Virus record (IMG/VR): IMGVR_UViG_3300037067_013660
Coordinates: 96,001 to 160,000 of that record
Source of the DNA: a virus
Taxonomy: Duplodnaviria; Caudoviricetes
DNA: 64,000 bases
Direction: 5' to 3' (one strand)
Below, piece by piece: positions 20,288 through 42,148 of this stretch (within the stretch, counting starts at the first letter, position 1; every line of letters starts with the position of its first letter). The notes under the pieces were generated by a model, which saw only the letters and a program-made list of their open reading frames with translations, was not told the origin of the DNA and made no database searches. The position numbers and the translations under genes are program-made.

Positions 20288-23200
20288 CTACGCGGCATTC
20301 AGGTCACGCGCATCCCAGAACCGTGTATTCACGCTGTAGAGCCCCAGGATGTTCTTGATGGGCAACCGCGTGTTGAAGTAGTAGCCGAAGTGGTAGGTGC
20401 GCTGGTCCAGTGGATCGGCGAACACGTATACGTCGCGGTTCGGGTTGATGGGCCGGATGGTCGGGGGATTCTGCTCCGAGCCGTAGGGCGCCACGATGCC
20501 GCTCGACGCCATGCCGCCGAGGATCAACACGAGGTTGCTCTGGATCAGCAGTACACCGGCCGCTGGGCTGGGCGGTACGAAACCGATGAGGTTGTTCAGC
20601 TCGGTGCGGATCTGTTTCAGGACGTAGTGCTCTTGCGTCCTGGCGCTGATCTCATTGAGCGCCACCTCGGTGGTATCGACCGTGCGGGACTCACCGTATT
20701 CATAAATGCTGGAGCCCAGCGTATTCATGTAGACGGTCGAGGCGGCGCCCAGGATCTTGGTTTCGCTCTCGGTAAAGAGCGTGATGGAATCGAACGACGC
20801 GACCTGTTGCTTCAGGATCGTGCTGGCGGGATCATTGAAGCTGGCGGTCAGGGCAGCGGCATGAGCCGCGAGGAACGAACCGTCCAGCGACAACGTAGTG
20901 GTTGAACCGTCCTCCATCTGTTGCGTACGGGTCAACGTATTGTTGGCCATCAGGATGACGTTGCCCTTGCCTTGGGAGTTCGGACCAAACTGCAGTGTTT
21001 TGCGCGCTAGGTACACGATGGTGCCGGGCGTAGTGTCGTCGCCGATGGCGGTGCCGGACGGTACTCCGACCCACAGGAGTCTCTGCTTACCCTCGAACGG
21101 GTCGCACATTTGTTCAACCGAGAGCTTCGCGTAACCCAAGGCGTTGAAGTACGACAGCACGATGATGTCGGAAATGTCGGACTTGGTTTCGGACGCGTCG
21201 ATGGCGTTCCGATAATCCGCGATGGTGTAGACCTCGTTGTCACCCGCAGACTTCACCTGAATGAAGTAGCCGCCGAAGAACGAAGTGTCGAACATGATCT
21301 CGGCCGCGAGCCACAGGTGGTTCGATGTGGCGGACGGGTAGAGCCCGAGGCGTGCGGAATCACGATCGAGGTAGCGGAGCGGTTGGTTGAACTCTGTGTC
21401 GGCACGTTTTCGGTTTGCCGTAACGAAATAGGACTCGCCGGCGTTGGGCTCGTAGCCTGCCCACTCGTAGTCCACCTGGATGTCGACGGCGGGATCCGTC
21501 GCGAAGTAAATGTAGGGCGTGTCCGTCACCCACGTGTAGCTAAGGGGCGTACCGGCGAGCGCCTGCTTAACTCGCAGGATAGACGTAGGGGTTTCGTTTA
21601 GGATGATGTAGTAGGTGAGGGGTACGCCAGTGATGGTACCGGGGCCATCGAACTGCACGTCGCCATCGTCGATGGTTTCGCTCGCGCGTCGTACCAGCGT
21701 CCAGTCCACGGTGTCGTCGCACGTCACCGAGAAACTGTGCTTGTCGTTTGCGGCATAACGGCTGTCGACGTTGCGCAGCATGAGGCGCAGGTTGTCCGGC
21801 AGGTCCACGTAGGGATCCAGATACGATCCACCCGTTGCCGTCGCGGTCAAGACGCCCCAGCTACCTTCGTAGTTGTTGGCGTTGTAGGTAAGCTGGACCG
21901 ATACGCCAGCATTTACGGTGTTGATGGTGACGAGGTAGTTGCGGTCGTCCTTCGCGGTGTACTCACGGCGGTCGGCCCGCGCGTTGATGGTCCAGTAGTC
22001 GCCGTCAATAAACCCGGAGGCCACGCGGTGCTTGTTGTACTGCACGATGGCGTCGTTGAGCCACGCCAGGATGTCGCCCAGCGATGACGTTGTCGTCACC
22101 GTATAGGTAAAGTCGTGGGTGGTGTCGGCGACGAGGTGCTGTGTGGTGTCGGCCCAGTGAGCCAACAGCTTGGTTTGGGCATCAAGCGCCCAGGTACGAA
22201 GCGTTTCGAGATCGATGGGGGCCGCGACGGCAAATGGATGCGATCCAGCACCACCAGTGTGCCAACCGCCACCTCCGTTGTTGTCGTGCAGGTTGTACTT
22301 CGTCATGAACGTCGAGGCCAACGACAGCGCACTGGCCAGGGACGTGGCGGTACCGGTCAACGTGTTGGTGGTGTCGGCAACCGCATGGTCGGCCCCGAAC
22401 GCGAAGTTCAGGTAGATTTTCTTTTCCAGCAGGACGTTCGTCAGGGACGTGGCCGTCGCTTCCGTCAGCGTGAAGGAACCCTCGCTGAACGGCAACTCGT
22501 TGTGGGCGGCCCATTGAATATCGACCGTGCGGGTGGGACCAACGCCCGCCGCGTTGGTCGCGACCAACGTGTACTGCCGATCAAACTCGTCGTTGTAATC
22601 GGTTTCACTACTGATCGTGATGGCGCTGCCGGACGAAAACACGTTGGCGGGCGTGACGCTGTTGTAGGCGCCGGCAACCGGATCCTCGACGTCGGAGAAC
22701 TGGTTGGTGTTCTGGTGCGCCGACGAAAATTCCATCAGGCCAGGACCAGACGCCGTCCAAGTAAACACGTCACCGTTGTCAAAATTGGCAACGCCGTTCC
22801 AAGCAATGTCTAGTACGATGCCGTCGTCTGGCCACCAAGTAGGAAGTTTGTACCCTACCTTGTAGAAGGTGTTGTCGTCCAGCGCGATGTTGGTGTCGTT
22901 GACTCCCTGTTGAATTGCCAAAACAGGTGCGTCGGCAGTACTGAAGAACGGCAGGTTAGTGGTTTGACTATTCCCGCCCGACGTAGCCGTAACCTCGACC
23001 TTGAATTCAATCGTGCGGTTGGGATCAGCACTACCGGCATTTTGCGCCGTCAGTGTGTAGGTACGATTGTAAGGGAACACGTAATCTGTGGTGACGTTGA
23101 ATGTCAACGCGGCAGGACTTGCACCAGCGGGTGTTTCTGTGATGGCACTGACGGCACCGTCTGTGTAGGTGTTGGTCGTGGCCGCGACCAGCGCGTCGGT

Positions 23201-23752
23201 ATCGGTCGAGTCGCCCGTCAACGTGGTGTTGATGCGGTAGTCCTCGAACTCGGTGTAGCGCGACACCCCAGAGGAGTCGCCGACGTACAGGACGCTACGG
23301 AGGTCGTCGAACTGAAGCTCGTCCAGCACGTCGTCATCAACCGACTGGTATTCGATCAGGTAGGAGGCGTTTTTGTCGAACGCCGTGTCGATGATGACGA
23401 CGCGGTCGTATTCACCCGAGCCCGTAGTAGTCTCGTAGAACGCCCACTTGTCGATCGTGACTTCGTCCCCGGTGCTTTTGTACAGACGGGCCAAACCTTG
23501 ATCGTTGGACGCGTTGTGGTCCAGGGACGCGAAGTACGGCGGCGCCGGCGAGAAACTCAGGGTTTCGGCGTAGACGTAAGCACGGATGTGCCGACTGTCC
23601 TGTTCTCGCGCCAGACGACTGCCACGGCCAATGGCACACGGAAATCGAGGCGTTCCCGTCAAAGACGAAGGTCTGGGTTGATGTACACGCCCAATATACG
23701 TGCCGGGGCGGATATAACGATTTGTAGTCAAACGGATGTCGCCGACTGCCAT
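20288..23752 (-). CDS. Contractile tail sheath protein with large inserted domains
   Basis: N-terminal YIRPGTYI; C-terminal LDGSFLAAHAAAL...T...EIS...YYFNTRLPIKNI sheath core; 1154 aa. Confidence 0.88.
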   Translation of the reverse strand: MAVGDIRLTTNRYIRPGTYIGRVHQPRPSSLTGTPRFPCAIGRGSRLAREQDSRHIRAYVYAETLSFSPAPPYFASLDHNASNDQGLARLYKSTGDEVTIDKWAFYETTTGSGEYDRVVIIDTAFDKNASYLIEYQSVDDDVLDELQFDDLRSVLYVGDSSGVSRYTEFEDYRINTTLTGDSTDTDALVAATTNTYTDGAVSAITETPAGASPAALTFNVTTDYVFPYNRTYTLTAQNAGSADPNRTIEFKVEVTATSGGNSQTTNLPFFSTADAPVLAIQQGVNDTNIALDDNTFYKVGYKLPTWWPDDGIVLDIAWNGVANFDNGDVFTWTASGPGLMEFSSAHQNTNQFSDVEDPVAGAYNSVTPANVFSSGSAITISSETDYNDEFDRQYTLVATNAAGVGPTRTVDIQWAAHNELPFSEGSFTLTEATATSLTNVLLEKKIYLNFAFGADHAVADTTNTLTGTATSLASALSLASTFMTKYNLHDNNGGGGWHTGGAGSHPFAVAAPIDLETLRTWALDAQTKLLAHWADTTQHLVADTTHDFTYTVTTTSSLGDILAWLNDAIVQYNKHRVASGFIDGDYWTINARADRREYTAKDDRNYLVTINTVNAGVSVQLTYNANNYEGSWGVLTATATGGSYLDPYVDLPDNLRLMLRNVDSRYAANDKHSFSVTCDDTVDWTLVRRASETIDDGDVQFDGPGTITGVPLTYYIILNETPTSILRVKQALAGTPLSYTWVTDTPYIYFATDPAVDIQVDYEWAGYEPNAGESYFVTANRKRADTEFNQPLRYLDRDSARLGLYPSATSNHLWLAAEIMFDTSFFGGYFIQVKSAGDNEVYTIADYRNAIDASETKSDISDIIVLSYFNALGYAKLSVEQMCDPFEGKQRLLWVGVPSGTAIGDDTTPGTIVYLARKTLQFGPNSQGKGNVILMANNTLTRTQQMEDGSTTTLSLDGSFLAAHAAALTASFNDPASTILKQQVASFDSITLFTESETKILGAASTVYMNTLGSSIYEYGESRTVDTTEVALNEISARTQEHYVLKQIRTELNNLIGFVPPSPAAGVLLIQSNLVLILGGMASSGIVAPYGSEQNPPTIRPINPNRDVYVFADPLDQRTYHFGYYFNTRLPIKNILGLYSVNTRFWDARDLNAA

Positions 23753-23826
23753 TGGTTTCTCCTATTGCGGCAAAACCATCGTCGTGAAACACCACGATGG
23801 TTCAGAAAAATGAAACAACTTCTTAC

Positions 23827-23837
23827 TAAAGATTAAC
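23827..23837 (-). promoter_or_regulatory. Putative late promoter
   Basis: GTTAATCTTTA upstream of the sheath gene. Confidence 0.7.
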
Positions 23838-23838
23838 G

Positions 23839-24834
23839 CTATCGGGCCACGACCGTGACGTCATGGGAGGCCAGAACTTCGGGACCGTCTTGTTGTGATC
23901 CGAACAGGCGCGTTACCATCAACTTGAAGGTGCCGACACGACGCGGTTCAATGATCCACTGGTATCCACGTTGGCTCACGACCGCGATGCGGGGATCGTT
24001 GCTGTAGACCTGCACGGGTTTCGGTTGATTCAACAGCGTGATGCGGTGCGGTTGCCCGACGCGCAACGTATCGGGTACCGATAACCTGATGGTGCCGCGT
24101 AACGGTACGGCCCTGGGATCTGATCGGTACTGCAACAAGATGGAGTTCTCGAACTCCACCTCCATGGTGCAGGACACGGACCAGAACTGATTACGTGGAT
24201 CGCCGTGGACGGCCGAGTGCGACTTGGCCCCCATGGTGTGGCTCAGGGGAATTCGTACCTCCCACAAAGAGCCCTCGACGTCTGGGGCCTGGCGCAAAAT
24301 GTAGTTGATGGTGAAGCAGCATAGTTGGCCAAACGCCGTCGACAAAACAGCCTGTAGGTCCTCGACCTCAACGACCGACATCGCGACGCACGTGATGTCG
24401 ATCGGGATCTTTACGACGTCCATGACGCGGACAACCTGGTGACCTGCCGAGGTATTGAGGTTCCACCCGGCGTTCAGGCTCCCGAGGGAGTTCGTGACGT
24501 ATTGGTAACCGTTGTCCTGAATGAATATCTGGGGCGGCCGTTCCTGCATGTTGTCGTAGAACGTAGCGATCTGCAGGTGGCGGTCGTCCGCGTCCTGACC
24601 TAGTTTCTGATTAATGTGGTAGCCGACCGTGTAGGTCGCGACCTTGTCGAAAAATTCACGGAACTGACCGTTTGGCTTCAGACATTCTTCTAAGTACTGC
24701 TTGATCGCCAGTTTCGTGATGCGCAGGTATTGCGTGACGTCGGAGCGAAACAATCCCGTCAGGGCGCTGCGGTCAAGCGGCGCCATCGCGATGAACTGCG
24801 GTCCTGGTCGTTCCGTCGGTACGTTATCGCTCAT
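23839..24834 (-). CDS. Tail completion/terminator-like protein with C-terminal Ig-like domain
   Basis: Upstream of the sheath; C-terminal 'YSNDPRIAVV...RRVGT' Ig-like motif. Confidence 0.6.
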   Translation of the reverse strand: MSDNVPTERPGPQFIAMAPLDRSALTGLFRSDVTQYLRITKLAIKQYLEECLKPNGQFREFFDKVATYTVGYHINQKLGQDADDRHLQIATFYDNMQERPPQIFIQDNGYQYVTNSLGSLNAGWNLNTSAGHQVVRVMDVVKIPIDITCVAMSVVEVEDLQAVLSTAFGQLCCFTINYILRQAPDVEGSLWEVRIPLSHTMGAKSHSAVHGDPRNQFWSVSCTMEVEFENSILLQYRSDPRAVPLRGTIRLSVPDTLRVGQPHRITLLNQPKPVQVYSNDPRIAVVSQRGYQWIIEPRRVGTFKLMVTRLFGSQQDGPEVLASHDVTVVAR

Positions 24835-25577
24835 ACGGTTGGCTTCGAATAATCGACAGCAGTTAGGCCGTGGCTACAAAGGATTTCGTAGACCCCGAGG
24901 TACAGTTTGCCGTGACGTGGGTGTTGGAACAAAGTGCCGTGTACTGCGTCGTCCAGCAAGACTCGTAGGCGAGCCGCGACCGATGATTTAGACGGGTGCA
25001 TAAAGAAATAGGCCGATGACGTGAATTCATTTTCGATCCACGCGAGGTAGTCGTCGGATACCCGTCCTTTGAGCCAGTACTCCAACGCGATGGTGATGCC
25101 GTAGGCGTCGTACTCTTGCTCGGCGCGGAAACGACCAAACGGTACGGGCGAACTCAGGACAGCCCCGACGCCCACACCGATCAAGCTGATCCACCAAGGC
25201 GCGACGAATAACCAGAGCGGCAACGCCATCAACATCAACAGCAGTGCCGCGACAAAATAAACGGGCGTGCCCAGCAGGTACAGAGGACCAAACAATAAAC
25301 GCCACCGTTTTGCTTGGCGGGCGTGTTGCGCTTCGTGCAGGATGATGCCGTATTCGGTCGCGGGATCCACGGTACTGGTGGGATACGCGGTCGTCTGCCC
25401 GATGGTGGTCCAGTAGGCTTCGAGGTAGCGTTTGTTGATCGCCCACCCGAACGCCCACGGAACCCGCAGGGCCCAACCGATGAATCGGTGGAGTCGTGAA
25501 TCGGACTTACAGATGATGCGGAATTTGGGTACGTGCGTTTGGATTAAACGCAGAACCTCGACGTAGACGCTGTCCAC
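24831..25577 (-). CDS. Membrane-anchored HExxH metallopeptidase-like protein
   Basis: WTTIG...ILHEAQHARQ, two hydrophobic helices, EQEYDAY. Confidence 0.65.
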   Translation of the reverse strand: MDSVYVEVLRLIQTHVPKFRIICKSDSRLHRFIGWALRVPWAFGWAINKRYLEAYWTTIGQTTAYPTSTVDPATEYGIILHEAQHARQAKRWRLLFGPLYLLGTPVYFVAALLLMLMALPLWLFVAPWWISLIGVGVGAVLSSPVPFGRFRAEQEYDAYGITIALEYWLKGRVSDDYLAWIENEFTSSAYFFMHPSKSSVAARLRVLLDDAVHGTLFQHPRHGKLYLGVYEILCSHGLTAVDYSKPTV

Positions 25578-25600
25578 CGTAACTCCAGTAGTTGTTCTAC

Positions 25601-25611
25601 TAGAGATTAAC
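25601..25611 (-). promoter_or_regulatory. Putative late promoter (variant)
   Basis: GTTAATCTCTA upstream of 25577. Confidence 0.6.
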
Positions 25612-25623
25612 GATGTATCGAGG

Positions 25624-25818
25624 TTACGGAAGGAAGAGGGCGCGCAGGATGGCGAAAAGCAACATGCCCAGCCCGATGCCGAACATCACGCCACTGACGA
25701 ATGCTTGGCGTTCTGTTGCATCTCGGTAGCGGTACAACAAATCAGACGCGTCGCGCCCCAACACAGAGCAACGACGTTCTAGGGCGTCGAATAGGTGTCG
25801 TGCGGTTACGCGGCCCAT
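25624..25818 (-). CDS. Small membrane protein
   Basis: C-terminal hydrophobic helix. Confidence 0.45.
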   Translation of the reverse strand: MGRVTARHLFDALERRCSVLGRDASDLLYRYRDATERQAFVSGVMFGIGLGMLLFAILRALFLP

Positions 25819-26435
25819 AGTTTTGTTAGGGCCGGAGCCTTGACGCCAATGGTTTTGATGACGAGGTCGTGAAACGTTTGGGTCTGGTCTGCGGTCCACA
25901 CGTTCGTCACGTACTGAAGGCGCGCGTAGCCCAGCGCGATGAACGCGACGTCGATCAGCAGACGTTTTCCTATGCGCTTGCGTCGGTCTCGATCCTCCCA
26001 AGTTTTAATAACGTCTAATTCGGGACGTGGTGGCAGACCGCACAGATGGCACATCATGTCGAACCCCATGGTGCCGGTCGGGTTTGTCATCTCGCGTAAC
26101 TCTTGTGCGACGTCCACGTGCCCGATGACGTCGTCGATCTTGATCAGGTTGGGGACCGGTACGTTCGCGATCAACGCGTTGCTCATGACGACCGGCATGC
26201 CGAAGTGCTTGCCCGCGAACGACGTGACGACGTGGGCGTTCGCGACCGACGCGTCCAACCGAGCCAACACGTCGGCGGGATTTTCTCGTAGGCAGACCCA
26301 CGCTTTCATCTTGGGTGGATCCCGTTTCATTACCTCCAGACCCGCCGCCCCGATGAGTTGGTGATGGGGCGGCGGGGGAAAGGATCCTTGTTGGTTGTAC
26401 GTTGCGACGTGCCAGAATAGGTGGTGTTGCATCAT
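25806..26435 (-). CDS. PolB-related 3'-5' exonuclease-fold protein, apparently inactive
   Basis: FPPPPHHQLI, VVTSFAGKHFGMPVV, HVDV, LCGLP and IDV align with the stand-alone PolB-exo family, but key Asp/Glu residues are missing. Confidence 0.55.
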   Translation of the reverse strand: MMQHHLFWHVATYNQQGSFPPPPHHQLIGAAGLEVMKRDPPKMKAWVCLRENPADVLARLDASVANAHVVTSFAGKHFGMPVVMSNALIANVPVPNLIKIDDVIGHVDVAQELREMTNPTGTMGFDMMCHLCGLPPRPELDVIKTWEDRDRRKRIGKRLLIDVAFIALGYARLQYVTNVWTADQTQTFHDLVIKTIGVKAPALTKLWAA

Positions 26436-26440
26436 GGTGA

Positions 26441-27655
26441 TTACTGCAGTACGGTCGCTAGATTTTCCCGTAGTTCGTTGCGACCAATTCCGACAAACGT
26501 ACGGGCCGCGCACACCAAGGTTTTGACCGGCAGTTCGTCGCTGTGGTGGCCTGTTGTTTCGACGCAGTGGGCGTCGAACAGCGGCTCCCAGTCACCGTTT
26601 AGTGTTTCGATGAACTGCTTGATCTTGGGGTCGATGACGTTGTGGTGGCGGTCGAATTGAATCTCCGGCAAGACCGAGGGCGACGGAATGACGTCGTGGA
26701 GCGTCAGGCCCGTCTCGGGATTCGGCACGTCGAACGAACGGGTGCGCGGGATCCAATCGCCCACGGTCTCGGGCGTCAGGTCCATGATGATGGTGCGGGT
26801 CTTCAGGACGCCCCTGCGACAATCCCGCAACGCCTGTTCGGCCTCTTGCTGCGTCGGGTAGAAGCGGTAGACGTTGGAGTAGCGGACGCGGTCGACAAAA
26901 TACGTCAGGACTTTGGTACCGCGCCGGTGGTGGCGGTCTTCCGGCAGCACGAAGGCTTTCTCGACTTTTTCCTGCCGGACGTTCAGGTACCACACGGTCT
27001 TGTGCTTTTCCCTGGTCTCCAGGCTGAGCAGCGGATTGCGGGATTCGTGGCCGTGGTGTTTCGCCAGGTTGGCGGCGTAGTTTTTCAAACCCCGCGCCAC
27101 CAACGCCGCCATCGTGTTGGCGTTGTAGTCGAATATTTCGTAGTGTCGGATGATGCGAACAGCTTGACACGCCAACTCGGCCTCGACGTCGTCAGCGTCA
27201 ACGCCGTGGTCGTTGGCCCAGAAAAAGTACAGACGTTTGCGCGTGAGGAAACGGTTGTAGCGCGTAACCGCGTCGATGACCTCGATGATGGCGCGGTCGC
27301 ACAGGCGCCTGGGTTTAGGGCGGCGCTGCAACTCGTCGCGGTCGTGGGCGTCAAGGCAATGGAAACACGCCTTGAGCCCATCGGGATCAAGGCCCAGGCG
27401 TGCCGCGATCTTCTGGTACCGGGGATTCGGCTGGTGTGCGATCCACCAGAGTCCTCGGTACAGTTGATTCTTGTGGACGCTACAGTCTATCCACTCGCGC
27501 ACGGTGCGAAAAGCATCGCGCTGGCCAAAGGGTAACGACATACTCAAATGATTAATTTCGTGATATTGCGTGAACCGGCAGACGTAGCGAACGAAGTGGG
27601 GCAAAAGCGTGGCGGACGCAGCAGGTAAATGCTGCGCAATTTTTGCACACAACAC
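26441..27655 (-). CDS. Sigma-factor-like protein (alternative start 27541)
   Basis: DADDVEAEL...ARGLKNYAANL resembles region 2; SFDVPNPETGLTLHDVIP resembles region 3. Confidence 0.5.
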   Translation of the reverse strand: MLCAKIAQHLPAASATLLPHFVRYVCRFTQYHEINHLSMSLPFGQRDAFRTVREWIDCSVHKNQLYRGLWWIAHQPNPRYQKIAARLGLDPDGLKACFHCLDAHDRDELQRRPKPRRLCDRAIIEVIDAVTRYNRFLTRKRLYFFWANDHGVDADDVEAELACQAVRIIRHYEIFDYNANTMAALVARGLKNYAANLAKHHGHESRNPLLSLETREKHKTVWYLNVRQEKVEKAFVLPEDRHHRRGTKVLTYFVDRVRYSNVYRFYPTQQEAEQALRDCRRGVLKTRTIIMDLTPETVGDWIPRTRSFDVPNPETGLTLHDVIPSPSVLPEIQFDRHHNVIDPKIKQFIETLNGDWEPLFDAHCVETTGHHSDELPVKTLVCAARTFVGIGRNELRENLATVLQ

Positions 27656-27902
27656 GTGGCAGCCTCCAGGTTTTGGTTTTCCCGTCTAAGTTGAACCGTT
27701 CGGCTACGTTACGCCAGGTCGCGTTTCGTGTCAACTACTTTGTTCGGGGCATTGCCTAATGATTCCGCTACGTTGTTGCTTGGGGCCAAACTTTTTGCAT
27801 AGGACGGATCCCGCTGGATCGCTTGGGGTGGGGCTGGGGACGCCATGGGACTAGATCCAATCCGATCCTATTCGATTTATTGGCTTGGCGTTGGTTCCCG
27901 TG

Positions 27903-29136: not shown

Positions 29137-29451
29137 CCTCTGCTCGGGGAGTCCTGTACTCCCCGAGCATCGAGTGCGCTTCAGCTACCTAAGCTGCCGA
29201 TCTCTTGCCTAGCGATCCGCCTGGGTGATGGTCGTCCAGCAGCTCGCCCAAGGAACCCAGGCACAAGATCCAGTAGTTTACTCAACCAGCCGCAACGTAG
29301 GACACGGCACGTCTTTCACCACCACGGGTGCAGCATCGGCGGCAGTGGGATCGTCCTCCAGATCGGGCAAGTAGCCGCAGTGCGGACAAGCGCCAGCACG
29401 GAAATAGACGATGAGCCTGACGGCGATGGTACTTAGCTTGCCGTTTGGGCA

Positions 29452-29994
29452 TCAACGGTACTTCGGCCAGTTTTCCGTTTCGCGTGGGTGGCGCGCTCGC
29501 ATTGGGTAGCGTTCAGGGTGCTGTAAATGACGTGCACAAAGGTCTGCATCTAAGGCAGGCCAGTAGAAGCCACCATCACCGATGAGTTGGACGTCTCGGA
29601 TCTCGTCGTCGGTGCCGTAGCGAAAAATTGGGTACGTGGTAAAATCGATCCAGTAGAGTTCTGTGTCGTAGTACAGCCAAAGACCCTTTGCCATAACCGC
29701 GTAAACAAACAAACGCGATCTATTGGCTGTTCTGTGGGCAGCAAAAAATGTACGCCAGGCGTCCATGATGACGTCATAGTGTTGCTCTACATAACGTTTT
29801 GACTTCCTGATGTCTGCGGCTTTTACGGCGGATTCTTTATGTTTTAGAGATACAGCACCAGCCTTAACTTTACCAAGCCACCACATAACAGTGCCACTAG
29901 GAGTGTCGACGTGTACGTGGGCTACGCTTCCTTCTGTACTATTAAAATAAAAACGAAAGCCGCCGACATTGATGGTAGTGATGGTGGGTGACAT
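29452..29994 (-). CDS. DUF4160-DUF2442 fusion (toxin-antitoxin-pair domains in one ORF)
   Basis: N-half MSPTI..VGGFRFYFNSTE..AHVHV...IMDAWRTFF; C-half YPIFRYGTDDEIRDV...GFYWPALDADL. Confidence 0.75.
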   Translation of the reverse strand: MSPTITTINVGGFRFYFNSTEGSVAHVHVDTPSGTVMWWLGKVKAGAVSLKHKESAVKAADIRKSKRYVEQHYDVIMDAWRTFFAAHRTANRSRLFVYAVMAKGLWLYYDTELYWIDFTTYPIFRYGTDDEIRDVQLIGDGGFYWPALDADLCARHLQHPERYPMRARHPRETENWPKYR

Positions 29995-30088
29995 TAATAG
30001 TACCTCTTCATTTCGTTAGCCTACTACGAAGCGCAGGGTCTGTCAATACCTATTATTCCTTACCCACTAGGTAGGATATGATTGGGCT

Positions 30089-30117
30089 TGACACCCCAGT
30101 CAGCGCCCGCTAGGATG
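30089..30117 (+). promoter_or_regulatory. Sigma70-type promoter of the tRNA array
   Basis: TTGACA-N17-TAGGAT. Confidence 0.75.
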
Positions 30118-30138
30118 CAGGCGACAAGGAAACGACCG

Positions 30139-30282
30139 ATGCGAACCCGAACCACCACCCAGGCCAAAGAGAAGCGCGTGACAGTGCGCCGTCTGGACTG
30201 GTTTGCCTCCTCACCGTGCAGTATTCCATCGTATCCCGATAATATGCATGGTCTTACCAAGGAGAACAGCCGGGCGGCATAG
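30139..30282 (+). CDS. Putative attenuator leader peptide (47 aa, all 20 amino acids)
   Basis: SD AAGGA; MRTRTTTQAKEKRVTVRRLDWFASSPCSIPSYPDNMHGLTKENSRAA followed by TAG TAA. Confidence 0.7.
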   Translation: MRTRTTTQAKEKRVTVRRLDWFASSPCSIPSYPDNMHGLTKENSRAA

Positions 30283-30304
30283 TAAGACCGAAAGAAACTG
30301 AACC

Positions 30305-30341
30305 AGGCCGCCCAGCGAAAGCTCGGTGGCCTTTTTGTTTT
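30305..30341 (+). terminator. Intrinsic terminator / attenuator before the tRNA array
   Basis: AGGCCGCC-CAGCGAAAGCTC-GGTGGCCT followed by TTTTGTTTT. Confidence 0.8.
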
Positions 30342-30619
30342 CCGGGTGCTGTTTTGCAGTGCGGAACAGTAGCGTAGCACGGTGCGAATCCGTGGCCCGG
30401 CATCGCCCGTGGAAAGCACGTGCGGGTTATGTTGGTTGGTGGCGACGAGCGTTGGTCCCGTGACGTGGTGGAAGCGGTAGCGGCGGCGCGGTCTCGACTG
30501 CGGTGCGGTGGTGTCGTAAGGCACTGCACGGTAGAGTTGAAAAACAAATAGTAAGGAGGTGATGTTTGCAGGAATTCCGTGGACACGTTCCGCTCCGTTG
30601 ATATGGGCGTGTCCACACT

Positions 30620-30690
30620 GGAGCTATGGTGTAGTGGCAACACGTTGGACCGTCTATCCGAAACCCCGAGTTCGATTCTCGGTAGCTCCG
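30620..30690 (+). tRNA. tRNA-Asp(GTC), atypical loop CC-GTC-TA
   Basis: Full cloverleaf, acceptor GGAGCTA/TAGCTCC, discriminator G. Confidence 0.85.
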
Positions 30691-30695
30691 TTGAC

Positions 30696-30770
30696 GGGGA
30701 TATAGTGTAATCTGGAAACACGGGTGGCCTGATCCGAACCACCAATTGCGGTTCAAATCCGATATCCCTG
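30696..30770 (+). tRNA. Atypical or pseudo tRNA with an 11-nt anticodon loop
   Basis: GGGGATA/TATCCCT acceptor, GGTGG/CCACC stem, loop CCTGATCCGAA, T-stem one base short. Confidence 0.6.
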
Positions 30771-30774
30771 ATTT

Positions 30775-30846
30775 GGACTCTTGGTGTAATCGGCAGCACA
30801 GGAGACTGAAGATCTCTTAGTCCAGATTCGATTTCTGGGGGGTCCA
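30775..30846 (+). tRNA. tRNA-Phe(GAA)
   Basis: Cloverleaf, loop CT-GAA-GA. Confidence 0.85.
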
Positions 30847-30848
30847 TT

Positions 30849-30920
30849 GCCTCGGTAGCCTAGTGGTCAGGCACCAGTCCGTTAAACTGTTTTACGCGAG
30901 TTCGACTCTCGCCCGAGGCG
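30849..30920 (+). tRNA. tRNA-Asn(GTT), C33
   Basis: GCCTCGG/CCGAGGC acceptor, loop CC-GTT-AA. Confidence 0.85.
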
Positions 30921-30931
30921 TTAGGTATTTT

Positions 30932-31002
30932 GGAGAGATCGTCCAATGGTAGGACCCCAGACCGTAACTCTGCTAATCTAGGTTCGAGTCCTGCCCTCGT
31001 CA
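30932..31002 (+). tRNA. tRNA-Tyr(GTA)-like, short variable arm, weak acceptor stem
   Basis: GTCC/GGAC D-stem, loop CC-GTA-AC, GGTTCGAGTCC. Confidence 0.6.
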
Positions 31003-31007
31003 TCTAC

Positions 31008-31080
31008 GTGCCTGTAGTTCAATTGGCAGAACGATCGCTTGATGGGCGATAGGTTGGGGGTTCGACGCCCTCCAGGCACA
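31008..31080 (+). tRNA. tRNA-Ile(GAT), G37/G38
   Basis: GTGCCTG/CAGGCAC acceptor, loop TT-GAT-GG. Confidence 0.85.
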
Positions 31081-31084
31081 TTTT

Positions 31085-31165
31085 GGCTGGTACCGTGCAG
31101 GGCACAAACTAGGTCCGAACCCTAGGGCGGTCTAACGGCCGGGAGTTCGATTCTTCTACCAGCCT
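31085..31165 (+). tRNA. tRNA-Ser(CGA) with an 8/4-type fold
   Basis: 8-bp acceptor GGCTGGTA/TACCAGCC, 4-bp T-stem, tiny D-loop, long variable arm, loop TC-CGA-AC. Confidence 0.7.
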
Positions 31166-31172
31166 TTGTTTT

Positions 31173-31257
31173 GGAAGGATGGCTGAGTGGTAAGGGACCG
31201 GATTGCTAATCCGAGGTCATCGTAATGGATGCGCGTGTTCAATCCACGCCACCTCCT
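31173..31257 (+). tRNA. tRNA-Ser(GCT), mismatched acceptor stem
   Basis: Loop TT-GCT-AA, long variable arm, GCGTG/CACGC T-stem. Confidence 0.65.
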
Positions 31258-31258
31258 T

Positions 31259-31342
31259 GGAGGACGAGATGCAAGGCGCGCAAGCTGGTTGGAAGCCAGT
31301 TAGATCTGAAAAGATCGCCGAGTTCGATTCTCGGGCCTTCCG
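31259..31342 (+). tRNA. tRNA-Ser(GGA), atypical D-arm
   Basis: Loop TT-GGA-AG, variable stem GATCT/AGATC, CCGAG/CTCGG T-stem. Confidence 0.75.
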
Positions 31343-31343
31343 T

Positions 31344-31415
31344 GCGACCGTAGTGTAATTGGTAGCACGTAAGTCTTCCAAACTTGCGGTACGAGTTCAA
31401 GTCTCGTCGGTTGCT
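31344..31415 (+). tRNA. tRNA-Gly(TCC)
   Basis: Canonical cloverleaf, loop CT-TCC-AA, U73. Confidence 0.9.
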
Positions 31416-31497
31416 TTATGGGGTGTGGTCCGGCGACCAAATTGATACTGTACATGTGTGCGGGCGCGTGTTATAATATAATGCAGGAGTGTACCTA

Positions 31498-32253
31498 ATG
31501 CCGAAACCTAATTGTGTGTGCACTATTTGTGGAGAGTCGTTCTATAGAGGTAAAAGTAGACTCAAAAACATCAAGCATGGTGTCTATTGCTCGCGGGAGT
31601 GTTTTCAGTTAGCACCCAAAACACAGAAACCAGAAAAGCGGCAGAAGGCACGGAAGTTGCGTATTGACGGGTGGTCCGTAAACAAAATTGCGGACAAGTT
31701 GAGTGTGTCTAAAGGAACTGTAAGCTTATGGGTACGTGACATGCCCAGACCTGAAAACTTAATCCCCAAACCTAAACCAGAGCCCAAACTACACGTACGT
31801 AAACAATATGTGATGGATAGCCAAGGCTATGTAATGGTACCGCACCCACGAAACTACAAAAATACTACGTATTGTGGTGGTCGCTACGTATACTTACACC
31901 GACTTGTCATGGAACGTTTTCTGCGTAGATATTTAACTTCTACTGAGGTAGTACACCACATCAACGGAGACAAACAAGACAATCGGCTAGATAATCTTGA
32001 GATTACTACTGCATCTGCCCATGCTACGCATCACGGAAGAAAATCACGTCTTGGGAAATTTCGTTGTCCTGTATGTTCTGGTGAGTTCACGAGAGCTTTG
32101 CACCAAACACACTTAAAGCGGGCGACACGATTTACGTGCTGTTCAAGTAGTTGTGCTAATAGTATGATTGCTTATATCCGACGTGAAGGTTTCTCTAAAA
32201 ACATACAACACAAAATAAGACGTTCATTGCTTGAAGTTTTTATGTCGGATTAG
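31498..32253 (+). CDS. HNH homing endonuclease with HTH and Zn-finger modules
   Basis: YVYLHRLVME...VVHHINGDKQDNRLDNLE; lower GC than its surroundings. Confidence 0.9.
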   Translation: MPKPNCVCTICGESFYRGKSRLKNIKHGVYCSRECFQLAPKTQKPEKRQKARKLRIDGWSVNKIADKLSVSKGTVSLWVRDMPRPENLIPKPKPEPKLHVRKQYVMDSQGYVMVPHPRNYKNTTYCGGRYVYLHRLVMERFLRRYLTSTEVVHHINGDKQDNRLDNLEITTASAHATHHGRKSRLGKFRCPVCSGEFTRALHQTHLKRATRFTCCSSSCANSMIAYIRREGFSKNIQHKIRRSLLEVFMSD

Positions 32254-32381
32254 CATTCAATCAGTTGTCGAGGAGTTTGCCCCTCCCAGCCGGGTTCAAT
32301 TCCTGGGTGGCCCGTTTGTCTTGACATCTTCTCCTCACTTGTGTTAGGTTCCTAACCTACTTATTCTTTAGGGGTGCTGCG

Positions 32382-32891
32382 ATGCTAACCCTAGTGCTCG
32401 ACGTTGGCTACCAACCCATCAACATGGTGCCGCTTTCCCGTGCCCTCACGTACTTGGTGAAAGGCAAGGTGGAGCTACTGGAATCCTACGAGCAGCCCAT
32501 CCACCCGGATTGGCAAGCCCCGGCGGTCGTGCGGTTGACCCACTGGTTTCGGCCCTACGCCAAATACGTGCGATTTAATCGCCAGAACATTTTGGCGAGG
32601 GATCGGTGGCGTTGTCAGTACTGTGGTGATCAATTCGCTACCAAAGAATTGACGTTCGACCACCTGTACCCGAAGTCACGTGGTGGTAAAACTACCTGGG
32701 AAAACATCGTGGCGTGCTGCCGTCCGTGCAACACACAGAAGGGCAACCGCACGCCCAAAGAGGCCAGCATGACGTTGATGCGACAGCCCGTACGCCCCAA
32801 GTGGCTACCGGTCTTTAGTTTCGGACTGCAACGCTGTACCAATATTCCGTCCGAATGGCGGGACTACTGGAACGTTGAGATCGAAGCGTGA
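32382..32891 (+). CDS. HNH endonuclease (McrA-like)
   Basis: RQNILARDRWRCQYCG...TFDHLYPKSRGG..TWENIVACCRPCN..K. Confidence 0.9.
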   Translation: MLTLVLDVGYQPINMVPLSRALTYLVKGKVELLESYEQPIHPDWQAPAVVRLTHWFRPYAKYVRFNRQNILARDRWRCQYCGDQFATKELTFDHLYPKSRGGKTTWENIVACCRPCNTQKGNRTPKEASMTLMRQPVRPKWLPVFSFGLQRCTNIPSEWRDYWNVEIEA

Positions 32892-39356: not shown

Positions 39357-39367
39357 ACATCAGTATA

Positions 39368-39937
39368 TTAAGTTTCTTTGTTTTCGTTGTCAAACATTTT
39401 CAGCATGCGGGTTAAATCCGCGCTGGAGGGCCCATCTACTAACTTTCCTTCTCGTGCTTGCTGAAGGCCCGCCATGACGGATGCCAAGGCTTTCGGATTT
39501 TCGTACAACCATCGATTTTCTGGCGGAACCGGCGTAGTCGTGACCTCTACTAAACCAGGGGTGTACATGTTTTCTTTCGCCAGGACGCGTGACATTAATG
39601 TTGTGCGGTCGGTTTCCGACGCCGACGCCGATCCGCTTTCCCACGCGCACACCGTTTCGACGTCCGTGGACAGCATTCTAGCAAAGTCGTCCACCCTGAG
39701 CATCAGGGCTTTGCGGATGTATCGACAGACTTTTCCCGTGAGCCCGTGGCAAGACGTAAGCACTAGCGCGATCTTAATGTCGAACATCTCCATCGCGGGA
39801 CCATCGAAGTAGGCGACGCCGCATTTTGGACAAACGCTTCCCTTGACCTTAGCTTCGAAAAACCGCCCGTCAACGTACTGATGATCGGGTAGGCGAGTCT
39901 CTTCGGTTTCGACGGCGTGGCAGTTAACACATTTCAT
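39368..39937 (-). CDS. MqsA-like antitoxin (Zn finger plus HTH) with C-terminal extension
   Basis: MKCVNC...CPKCG..YF, IRKAL...FARML...V.AWESG. Confidence 0.78.
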   Translation of the reverse strand: MKCVNCHAVETEETRLPDHQYVDGRFFEAKVKGSVCPKCGVAYFDGPAMEMFDIKIALVLTSCHGLTGKVCRYIRKALMLRVDDFARMLSTDVETVCAWESGSASASETDRTTLMSRVLAKENMYTPGLVEVTTTPVPPENRWLYENPKALASVMAGLQQAREGKLVDGPSSADLTRMLKMFDNENKET

Positions 39938-42040: not shown

Positions 42041-42148
42041 TGGAGCATGCAGGGTTCGAACCCGCATCTTCCGGTTTCGCCGGACGCTCTTCCAAGTCGC
42101 GAGCCTCGGGTGATCAATCCTCCGACCCGCAACCTGAGCTACTGCCCC
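42041..42148 (-). ncRNA. Anticodon-less tRNA-like RNA with an expanded D-loop
   Basis: GGGGCAG/ATGCTCC-A acceptor, GCTC/GAGC D-stem, TCCGG-CGAAA-CCGGA, GCGGG-TTCGAAC-CCTGC. Confidence 0.78.

Follow-up and report, generated by a model that had tools for sequence, protein, structure and literature searches.

What controls a phage tRNA array that has no recognizable promoter of its own? The question is raised by a locus in the IMG/VR virus record IMGVR_UViG_3300037067_013660 (196,895 bp, ~197 kb; CheckV completeness estimate, 56%), of which we analyzed bases 96001-160000; this stretch of 64,000 nucleotides is called the window here, and its numbering is used for the coordinates. Within it, a promoter-like site, a 47-codon open reading frame (ORF) with a Shine-Dalgarno (SD)-like sequence, and an intrinsic terminator precede ten tRNA or tRNA-like genes on the same strand (Table 1). 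To our knowledge, the regulation of phage tRNAs is almost unstudied. The explanation we prefer, and hold tentatively, is that the terminator responds to translation of the leader ORF and gates the ten-tRNA array as a generic attenuator.

According to this explanation, the host-type promoter at 30088 would produce a leader RNA of ~220 nt, and the polymerase would then encounter a strong intrinsic terminator at 30305-30341. Since the tRNAs of the array have no recognizable promoter, they would be reached mainly by read-through, with the terminator acting as an attenuator. Segment 2 of the leader could pair either with segment 1 (anti-antiterminator) or with the 5' arm of the terminator (antiterminator). 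A ribosome translating to the stop codon would cover segment 2, and transcription would end. With the ribosome absent, lagging behind the polymerase, or stalled over segment 1 (codons ~13-21), segment 2 would instead capture the terminator arm and the polymerase would run on into the array. The leader would thereby serve as a generic sensor of the pace of its own translation, and translation capacity would feed back on tRNA supply. A broader claim, that tRNA output rises whenever leader translation trails transcription and thus forms a homeostatic, phage-encoded feedback, we regard as doubtful; the causes of such trailing could be tRNA cleavage or depletion by host defenses, starvation, or a shortage of ribosomes. 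Phage tRNAs have been discussed as replacements for host tRNAs that are destroyed or depleted in infection (PMC10264068, PMC11555353).

Table 1. Features of the leader, its terminator, the tRNA array and the associated promoter-like sites.
Feature	Position	Strand	Basis or remark
Divergent promoter-like site TTGACA-N17-TAGGCT	30018..30046	-	precedes DUF4160/DUF2442 gene (29452-29994, minus)
Promoter-like site TTGACA-N17-TAGGAT	30088..30116	+	consensus scan; predicted transcript start ~30123
Shine-Dalgarno-like AAGGA	30126..30130	+	8 nt before ATG (9 nt in L006)
Leader ORF, 47 sense codons (MRTRTTTQAKEKRV...ENSRAA)	30139..30282	+	ATG 30139 to TAG 30280-82
Segment 1 (GCCGTCTGGACTG)	30188..30200	+	begins within tandem Arg codons 17-18 (CGC CGT); can pair with segment 2
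Long imperfect hairpin inside ORF, 12 + 4 bp	30213..30252	+	seen in all folds
Segment 2 (CAGCCGGGCGGC), last ORF codons	30267..30278	+	can pair with segment 1 or with terminator 5' arm (antiterminator)
Intrinsic terminator: 11-bp stem with one mismatch, GAAA loop, T5-G-T4	30305..30341	+	folding, -20.4 kcal/mol; hairpin 30305-32, then TTTTTGTTTT at 30332-41; 22 nt past stop codon, 277 nt before first tRNA
G+C-rich spacer, 277 nt	30342..30618	+	terminator to first tRNA
Array of 10 tRNA or tRNA-like genes	30619..31415	+	ARAGORN and Rfam
Third promoter-like site TTGACA-N16-18-TAGGNT	32321-32350	+	before HNH-169/response-regulator pair

Predicted alternative helices at the leader terminator

The promoter, the ORF with its SD, and the intrinsic terminator had been described in an earlier note made from the letters of the window, and we recovered all three at the positions listed in Table 1. 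A consensus terminator scan missed the terminator hairpin because of one internal C.C mismatch. The note had also pointed to the complementarity between GGGCGGC (30272-78) and GCCGCCC (30307-13), which is indeed present and places the end of the ORF opposite the 5' arm of the terminator. The resulting 2:3 duplex had an energy of -17.9 kcal/mol (p ~0.01 against dinucleotide shuffles), and the probability of this helix was 0.99 once position 30314 had been transcribed. The competing 1:2 duplex reached -22.4 kcal/mol (p = 0.011 against dinucleotide shuffles) and forms part of the minimum free energy (MFE) structure of the transcript ending at 30282. A further 8-bp helix drawn in the note across the stop codon (30250-57/30282-89) exists in the sequence, but its probability was ~0 in every folded ensemble, and we discarded it.

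Folding predicted a switch between these helices. For a transcript extending to 30333, the probability of the terminator helix, P(terminator), was 0.25 in the ribosome-free RNA, compared with a mean of 0.96 after dinucleotide shuffling of the ORF; 1.3% of the shuffles were as low. With a ribosome placed at the stop codon, the modeled value was 0.99, which agrees with the earlier proposal that a ribosome reaching the stop masks the antiterminator and allows the terminator to form. When a 30-nt mask was placed around each A-site codon in turn, P(terminator) fell below 0.5 only at codons 13-21 and 34-35 and was at least 0.72 elsewhere in this equilibrium model. Codons 13-21 encode R V T V R R L D W, and 3 of the 11 codons favoring read-through are cognate to tRNAs of the array. 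The suggestion that a stall anywhere in the ORF would lead to read-through is at odds with this confined response; as modeled, the layout is that of a classical three-helix attenuator rather than a stall-anywhere device.

Predicted transcription into the array, a related leader and a similar layout

On the plus strand, the promoter-like site at 30088-30116 is the only one of sigma-70 type ahead of the array. The neighboring upstream gene points away from the leader, so the region receives no plus-strand transcription from elsewhere. Within the spacer that separates the terminator from the tRNAs, the best promoter-like site was a weak TTGAAA-N18-GATGTT (30537), with none better than 8/12, in agreement with the note's remark that the array lacks an obvious promoter. 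Judged by these scans, the 30088 promoter appears to be the simplest source of array transcription, and with this promoter as the source, the terminator would be an attenuator by position.

Sites of the form TTGACA-N16-18-TAGGNT occur three times in the 197-kb contig, compared with ~0.2 expected, and all of them lie within 2.3 kb. This clustering suggests that the locus is a module with a promoter type peculiar to it. Promoters of the sigma-70 type appear to serve tRNA genes in this phage, since TTGACA-N17-TAATAT (39365-39393, minus strand) stands directly upstream of tRNA-Leu(TAG) (39357, minus strand), ending 8 nt before it. In contrast to the ten-gene array, that gene seems to be served by a promoter dedicated to it, without a leader.

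The only homologue of the leader was found on a Logan contig (L006), of which 482 nt align to window 29995-30472. Identity is ~95% over leader and spacer (30088-30470), including 95% over the first 129 nt of the spacer. The promoter hexamers are retained there amid a more diverged zone: the leader site reads TTGACG-N17-TAGGAT, and the divergent site keeps both hexamers with an altered spacer between them. The ORF is open and 95% identical, with seven substitutions that give A9T, K10E, V16A (two bases), and A23T and are synonymous at S31 and H37. They are distributed over codon positions 1, 2, and 3 as 3:1:3, which is not a protein-like pattern. Both indels lie just outside the ORF. One of the changes, a 1-nt insertion in the 5' untranslated region, abolishes longer in-frame forms of 55 and 66 codons while the 47-codon frame is kept, so that ATG 30139 is the only start shared by the two phages. 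Other genes of the phage have GAGG or AGGAG at a spacing similar to that of the leader SD. The leader ORF itself may be translated. A candidate gene on the minus strand across the leader (a 154-aa ORF at 30060-30524) was rejected, being frame-shifted by a 4-nt indel in L006.

All four helix segments are identical in L006, and the seven ORF substitutions fall outside them. The terminator region has 0 substitutions in 59 nt, with 4 extra nt after the T-tract in L006. In the hairpin inside the ORF, a G.U pair becomes G-C at 30249, and one inner pair is broken at 30231. We considered the low divergence of the leader as a sign of constraint and rejected it, because the leader lies in a recent recombination tract with a breakpoint near 29920. 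Comparison of the DUF4160/DUF2442 gene (29452-29994) with its L006 counterpart (483-1031) showed 92-100% identity over most of its first 25 codons and of the whole leader tract, with a dip to 83% at 30040-30099. Over the following 120 nt of the gene (29800-29919), identity is 62-70%, and across the rest it varies (62-97%). The jump in identity from 62-70% to 98% near 29920, inside the gene, marks the recombination tract.

A similar layout was found through the 169-aa HNH endonuclease gene downstream of the array (HNH-169, 32382-32891). Homologues of HNH-169 (33-49% identity) lie in or beside tRNA arrays, always on the same strand, at 13 of 26 IMG/VR loci (L007-L014, L025, and L028-L031, several of them jumbo-phage contigs of 190-450 kb), and from these positions it looks like a tRNA-array-associated HNH family. 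In the 800 nt upstream of ~40 array or sub-array starts at HNH-169 loci, five terminator-like hairpins were detected in four loci, and one layout resembled the present one. This locus, L007 (IMGVR_UViG_3300030332_001481; short ORF and terminator at 2430-2777), consists of a TTGACA box, a 54-codon ORF, a terminator of -25.7 kcal/mol, an 88-nt spacer, and 13 tRNAs. As in the leader under study, the ORF encodes all 20 amino acids (p 0.02-0.07), its stop lies 26 nt before a G+C-rich hairpin that contains GCCGCCC and is followed by a T-tract, the array is on the same strand, and an HNH-169 homologue lies downstream. In contrast, L007 has a poor -10 element and no SD, its tRNAs are not orthologous and its peptide does not align, its antiterminator complementarity is not above chance (p = 0.31), and its ORF shows no excess codon diversity (34 distinct codons of 54, longest run without a repeat 14). 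Homology of the two leaders was rejected, their nucleotide similarity not being significant (p 0.05-0.08). On this sequence comparison, L007 indicates only that an ORF and a terminator before a tRNA array recur.

Further searches gave no additional homologue of the leader. It is absent from contigs L003, L005, L037, and L038; blastn of 29400-31500 against 50,697 phage records found no homologue; scans of IMG/VR with the neighboring proteins, the tRNA junction, the terminator, the tRNA-Asp pattern, and the L007 terminator found no homologous leader; and GTDB genome contigs scanned with the terminator and tRNA-Asp patterns yielded no homologue. The pattern CCGATAAT-N6-GGT-N0-3-ACCAAGG had three matches, all of them chance occurrences inside coding sequence.

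Weighing the explanations

Several observations weigh against a translation-sensitive attenuator. The helix p values are ~0.01 each, for helices that were identified post hoc, and the folding model is an equilibrium one that ignores folding kinetics. The transcript start, termination, and translation, and with them the read-through into the array, are predictions from sequence. The codon-usage score of the ORF lies between coding and off-frame values and is not clearly coding, and the leader peptide found only itself among 5.8 and 1.8 billion proteins; the exact L006 version of the peptide returned no record. The promoter scans used a sigma-70 consensus, which may not be that of the host, and the 277-nt spacer may hold an unrecognized promoter. 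The chance of 0 substitutions in the four segments of L006 is ~0.17, which is little evidence of constraint, and as all four are identical, no covariation is possible. In addition, the L007 terminator (-25.7 kcal/mol) forms in the MFE structure regardless and is not predicted to be switchable.

A somewhat unlikely alternative is that the leader is an independent short transcription unit, a ~220-nt gene for a small protein or small RNA, and that the array has its own promoter in the spacer, such as a phage-specific promoter that a sigma-70 consensus scan does not recognize. Gene calling in the source record had reported the ORF as a gene, but the peptide has no relatives and the 3:1:3 substitutions do not resemble those of a protein. 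As for a small RNA, the leader is more structured than its shuffles (MFE z = -2.3) and carries the long internal hairpin, whereas a search of Rfam 15 (T-box, riboswitches, known leaders, and small RNAs) matched only tRNA models; the best other hit, BjrC68, scored 17.5 bits, where the gathering score is 39. The long spacer is well preserved in L006, and the L007 layout, in which an ORF and a very strong, apparently non-switchable terminator stand 88 nt before an array, suggests that arrays can be expressed despite such terminators. In the spacer of the present locus, however, no promoter-like site exceeded 8/12, and a repeated phage-specific motif was sought and none was found. This explanation also leaves the two complementarities of segment 2 (p ~0.01) unexplained. 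Should the locus prove to be no more than a small gene ended by its own terminator, this would be an ordinary finding, and it would teach that the variety of codons in one short ORF carries little evidential weight.

Quite unlikely, in our view, is a constitutive attenuator or insulator that works independently of translation: the array would be transcribed from the 30088 promoter, the terminator would let a fixed fraction of polymerases through or respond to another factor, and the ORF would be untranslated or irrelevant. It draws on the same promoter and terminator evidence as the translation-sensitive attenuator. Judged from stop-codon frequency, a 47-codon ORF starting with ATG is not rare in 220 nt of 56% G+C, and the codon usage of this one is indeterminate; yet a ribosome terminating at 30280-82 would sit exactly over the antiterminator segment, the SD is properly spaced before the ATG, and L006 destroys the longer in-frame forms while keeping the 47-codon frame.

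The remaining explanation is that of the earlier note, in which the codon content of the ORF is its design. The counts given there can be read directly from the sequence: 36 distinct codons among 47, every one of the 20 amino acids, and a 33-codon run (codons 15-47) in which no codon recurs. As a sign of design, they did not hold up. At least 36 distinct codons of 47 is ordinary for random ORFs (p 0.07-0.13 under uniform or local composition, and 0.03 when the position-specific composition of the ORF itself is used). A full set of 20 amino acids is less common in a random 47-codon ORF (p 0.01-0.03), a property repeated in the L007 ORF, and a run of at least 33 codons without a repeat is nominally rare (p ~1e-4 per ORF), for a statistic picked post hoc. 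No frame of the window has a longer run (this one spans 35 triplets counting stops; the next are 31 and 28), and mononucleotide shuffles of the window gave longest runs of 29-39, with a median of 33. The stretch behaves like the extreme of unbiased sequence, codon-biased genes yielding shorter runs. The first 14 codons, moreover, are repetitive (ACC four times, CGA twice).

The note had held beforehand that its idea falls if homologues show no excess diversity, and L006 gave that outcome. Its ORF uses 34 distinct codons, its longest run is down to 22, and three of its changes within the run create repeats (GCA16=GCA47, ACC23=ACC40, and TCA31=TCA25). Four of the six codons changed in L006 became codons already present in the ORF, where ~36/61 (~59%) is expected at random. 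Nor do the leader codons match the array as had been claimed: the array anticodons read 17 codons, which make up 29.8% of the codons in the long ORFs of the phage, and the leader contains 11 of 47, without enrichment over the ~30% expected (P(>=11) 0.85). A bias toward T-ending NNY codons (7 of 11, p = 0.03) was set aside as post hoc; it is 6 of 11 in L006. One feature of the array would fit an encounter with nucleases: tRNA-Asp (30619-30691) has C32-C33 before its GTC anticodon, where U33 is nearly universal in tRNAs. It has been proposed that phage tRNAs with variant anticodon loops escape tRNA nucleases (PMC10264068).

That the ORF was selected for maximal codon variety, with depletion or cleavage of almost any tRNA opening the array and countering anticodon nucleases, is very improbable given the ordinary diversity, the shortening of the run in L006, the L007 ORF, and the 11 favoring codons of which 3 are array-cognate. 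As part of the attenuator that we prefer, the codon diversity would be incidental and not selected, a view we take with the same reserve as the attenuator itself.

Known attenuators, the array and the wider contig

Leader-peptide attenuators of amino-acid operons include trpL, hisL, pheL, and thrL (e.g., PMC3082878). The present locus shares with the trp/his type a short leader ORF with an SD, an intrinsic terminator before the genes that would be regulated, and three mutually exclusive helices (1:2, 2:3, and 3:4), here in silico. It also shares a stop codon placed so that a terminating ribosome would cover segment 2, while stalls over segment 1 would free it. It differs in that the ORF is long (47 codons), the genes are phage tRNAs instead of biosynthetic enzymes, and the ribosome-free equilibrium fold favors read-through and not termination. 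It further lacks a run of codons for a single amino acid, the nearest being the tandem CGC-CGT at the start of segment 1. No cluster of regulatory codons lies over segment 1 (codons 13-21), and the array has no tRNA-Arg. It is on the regulatory-codon run that membership in the trp/his type fails.

Two other systems respond to translation in a more generic manner. For toiL of the Escherichia coli topAI-yjhQ operon (PMC12121999), a single upstream ORF is proposed to report many translation stresses through position-dependent stalls that remodel the downstream RNA, as would be the case here. Its output, occlusion of a ribosome-binding site together with Rho-dependent termination inside the downstream ORF, has been demonstrated experimentally (PMC12121999), whereas the present locus has an intrinsic terminator and non-coding downstream genes and is known from sequence and folding. 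The antibiotic-responsive attenuators of the vmlR type (PMC9226507) likewise share the principle that generic slowing in a leader ORF flips a terminator to an antiterminator. They gate ABCF or efflux genes in Firmicutes, with leaders that fall into conserved families (PMC9226507), while this leader has one near-identical relative and no family. The attenuator, to the tentative extent that we accept it, would be a known mechanism in a new context. If true, phages would have in it a simple means of adjusting tRNA supply to demand, and leader-peptide attenuation, described for amino-acid and resistance operons, would reach tRNA genes as well; it would be the first such attenuator known for tRNA genes.

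The ten tRNA or tRNA-like genes listed in the earlier note were found again, seven by ARAGORN and three more by Rfam: 30696-30770, 30932-31002 (GTA), and 31085-31164 (CGA, below threshold). Their order is Asp GTC, an odd tRNA, Phe GAA, Asn GTT, Tyr-like GTA, Ile GAT, Ser-like CGA, Ser GCT, Ser GGA, and Gly TCC. The odd member, at 30696-30770, has an 11-nt anticodon loop. In the spacer, a hairpin of 9-12 bp abuts tRNA-Asp, no Rfam family matched at E up to 5, and a tRNA-like fold at 30321-30402 was rejected as weak, appearing only at relaxed ARAGORN thresholds. A perfect 12-nt SD-like sequence, TAAGGAGGTGAT (30551-62), runs into an ATG at 30562, which opens a second 47-codon frame that passes straight through tRNA-Asp (window 30551-30705). 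The sequence CCTCCT in the leader (30205-10) could pair with this SD-like element.

The phage is present base for base in one groundwater and three landfill metagenomes, and a JGI contig (L004) differs by 1 mismatch in 1315. Among the sequencing runs listed for it, none is an RNA run. The contigs of three landfill runs (X2-X4) match the window without a difference and thus offer no sequence variation to exploit; X5 contained only tRNA-like pieces from other organisms. A relative with 91% identity over 5.3 kb (window 22546-27843; L002) is binned in a Candidatus Portnoybacteria metagenome-assembled genome (GCA_028687775.1), which may be a hint of the host lineage or a binning artefact. It is collinear with the window until 27843 and then unrelated, with a restriction-modification pair, ThyX, a TnpB-like gene, and a DEAD helicase, and without tRNAs.

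In the JGI contig L003 (404-682), the DUF4160/DUF2442 and HNH-169 genes are divergent neighbors separated by a 278-nt spacer with no array. Their adjacency there indicates that the leader, the tRNA array, and a 254-aa HNH gene form an insertion/deletion polymorphism in a variable spot. Comparison of window 29995-32381 with L003 gave short flank matches at 30014-34 and 31467-83 that hint at the indel junctions. The DUF4160/DUF2442 gene has further relatives, including the homologues P0005, P0007, and P0008 (70-73% protein identity) on Logan contigs from runs SRR22315507, SRR22315505, and SRR22388041, and gene-free gaps of 1.5-1.7 kb lie beside P0005 and P0008. Elsewhere in the window, Rfam reported a tRNA match of 108 nt at 42041-42148 (minus strand; 35.5 bits) between tRNA-Ala and tRNA-Leu, with no ARAGORN call; it is possibly an intron-containing or otherwise expanded tRNA. 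Over the contig as a whole, PHROG matches include a head-tail connector along with further phage families; several HNH endonucleases are also present, as are 15 tRNA-like genes, and this gene content fits a large phage.

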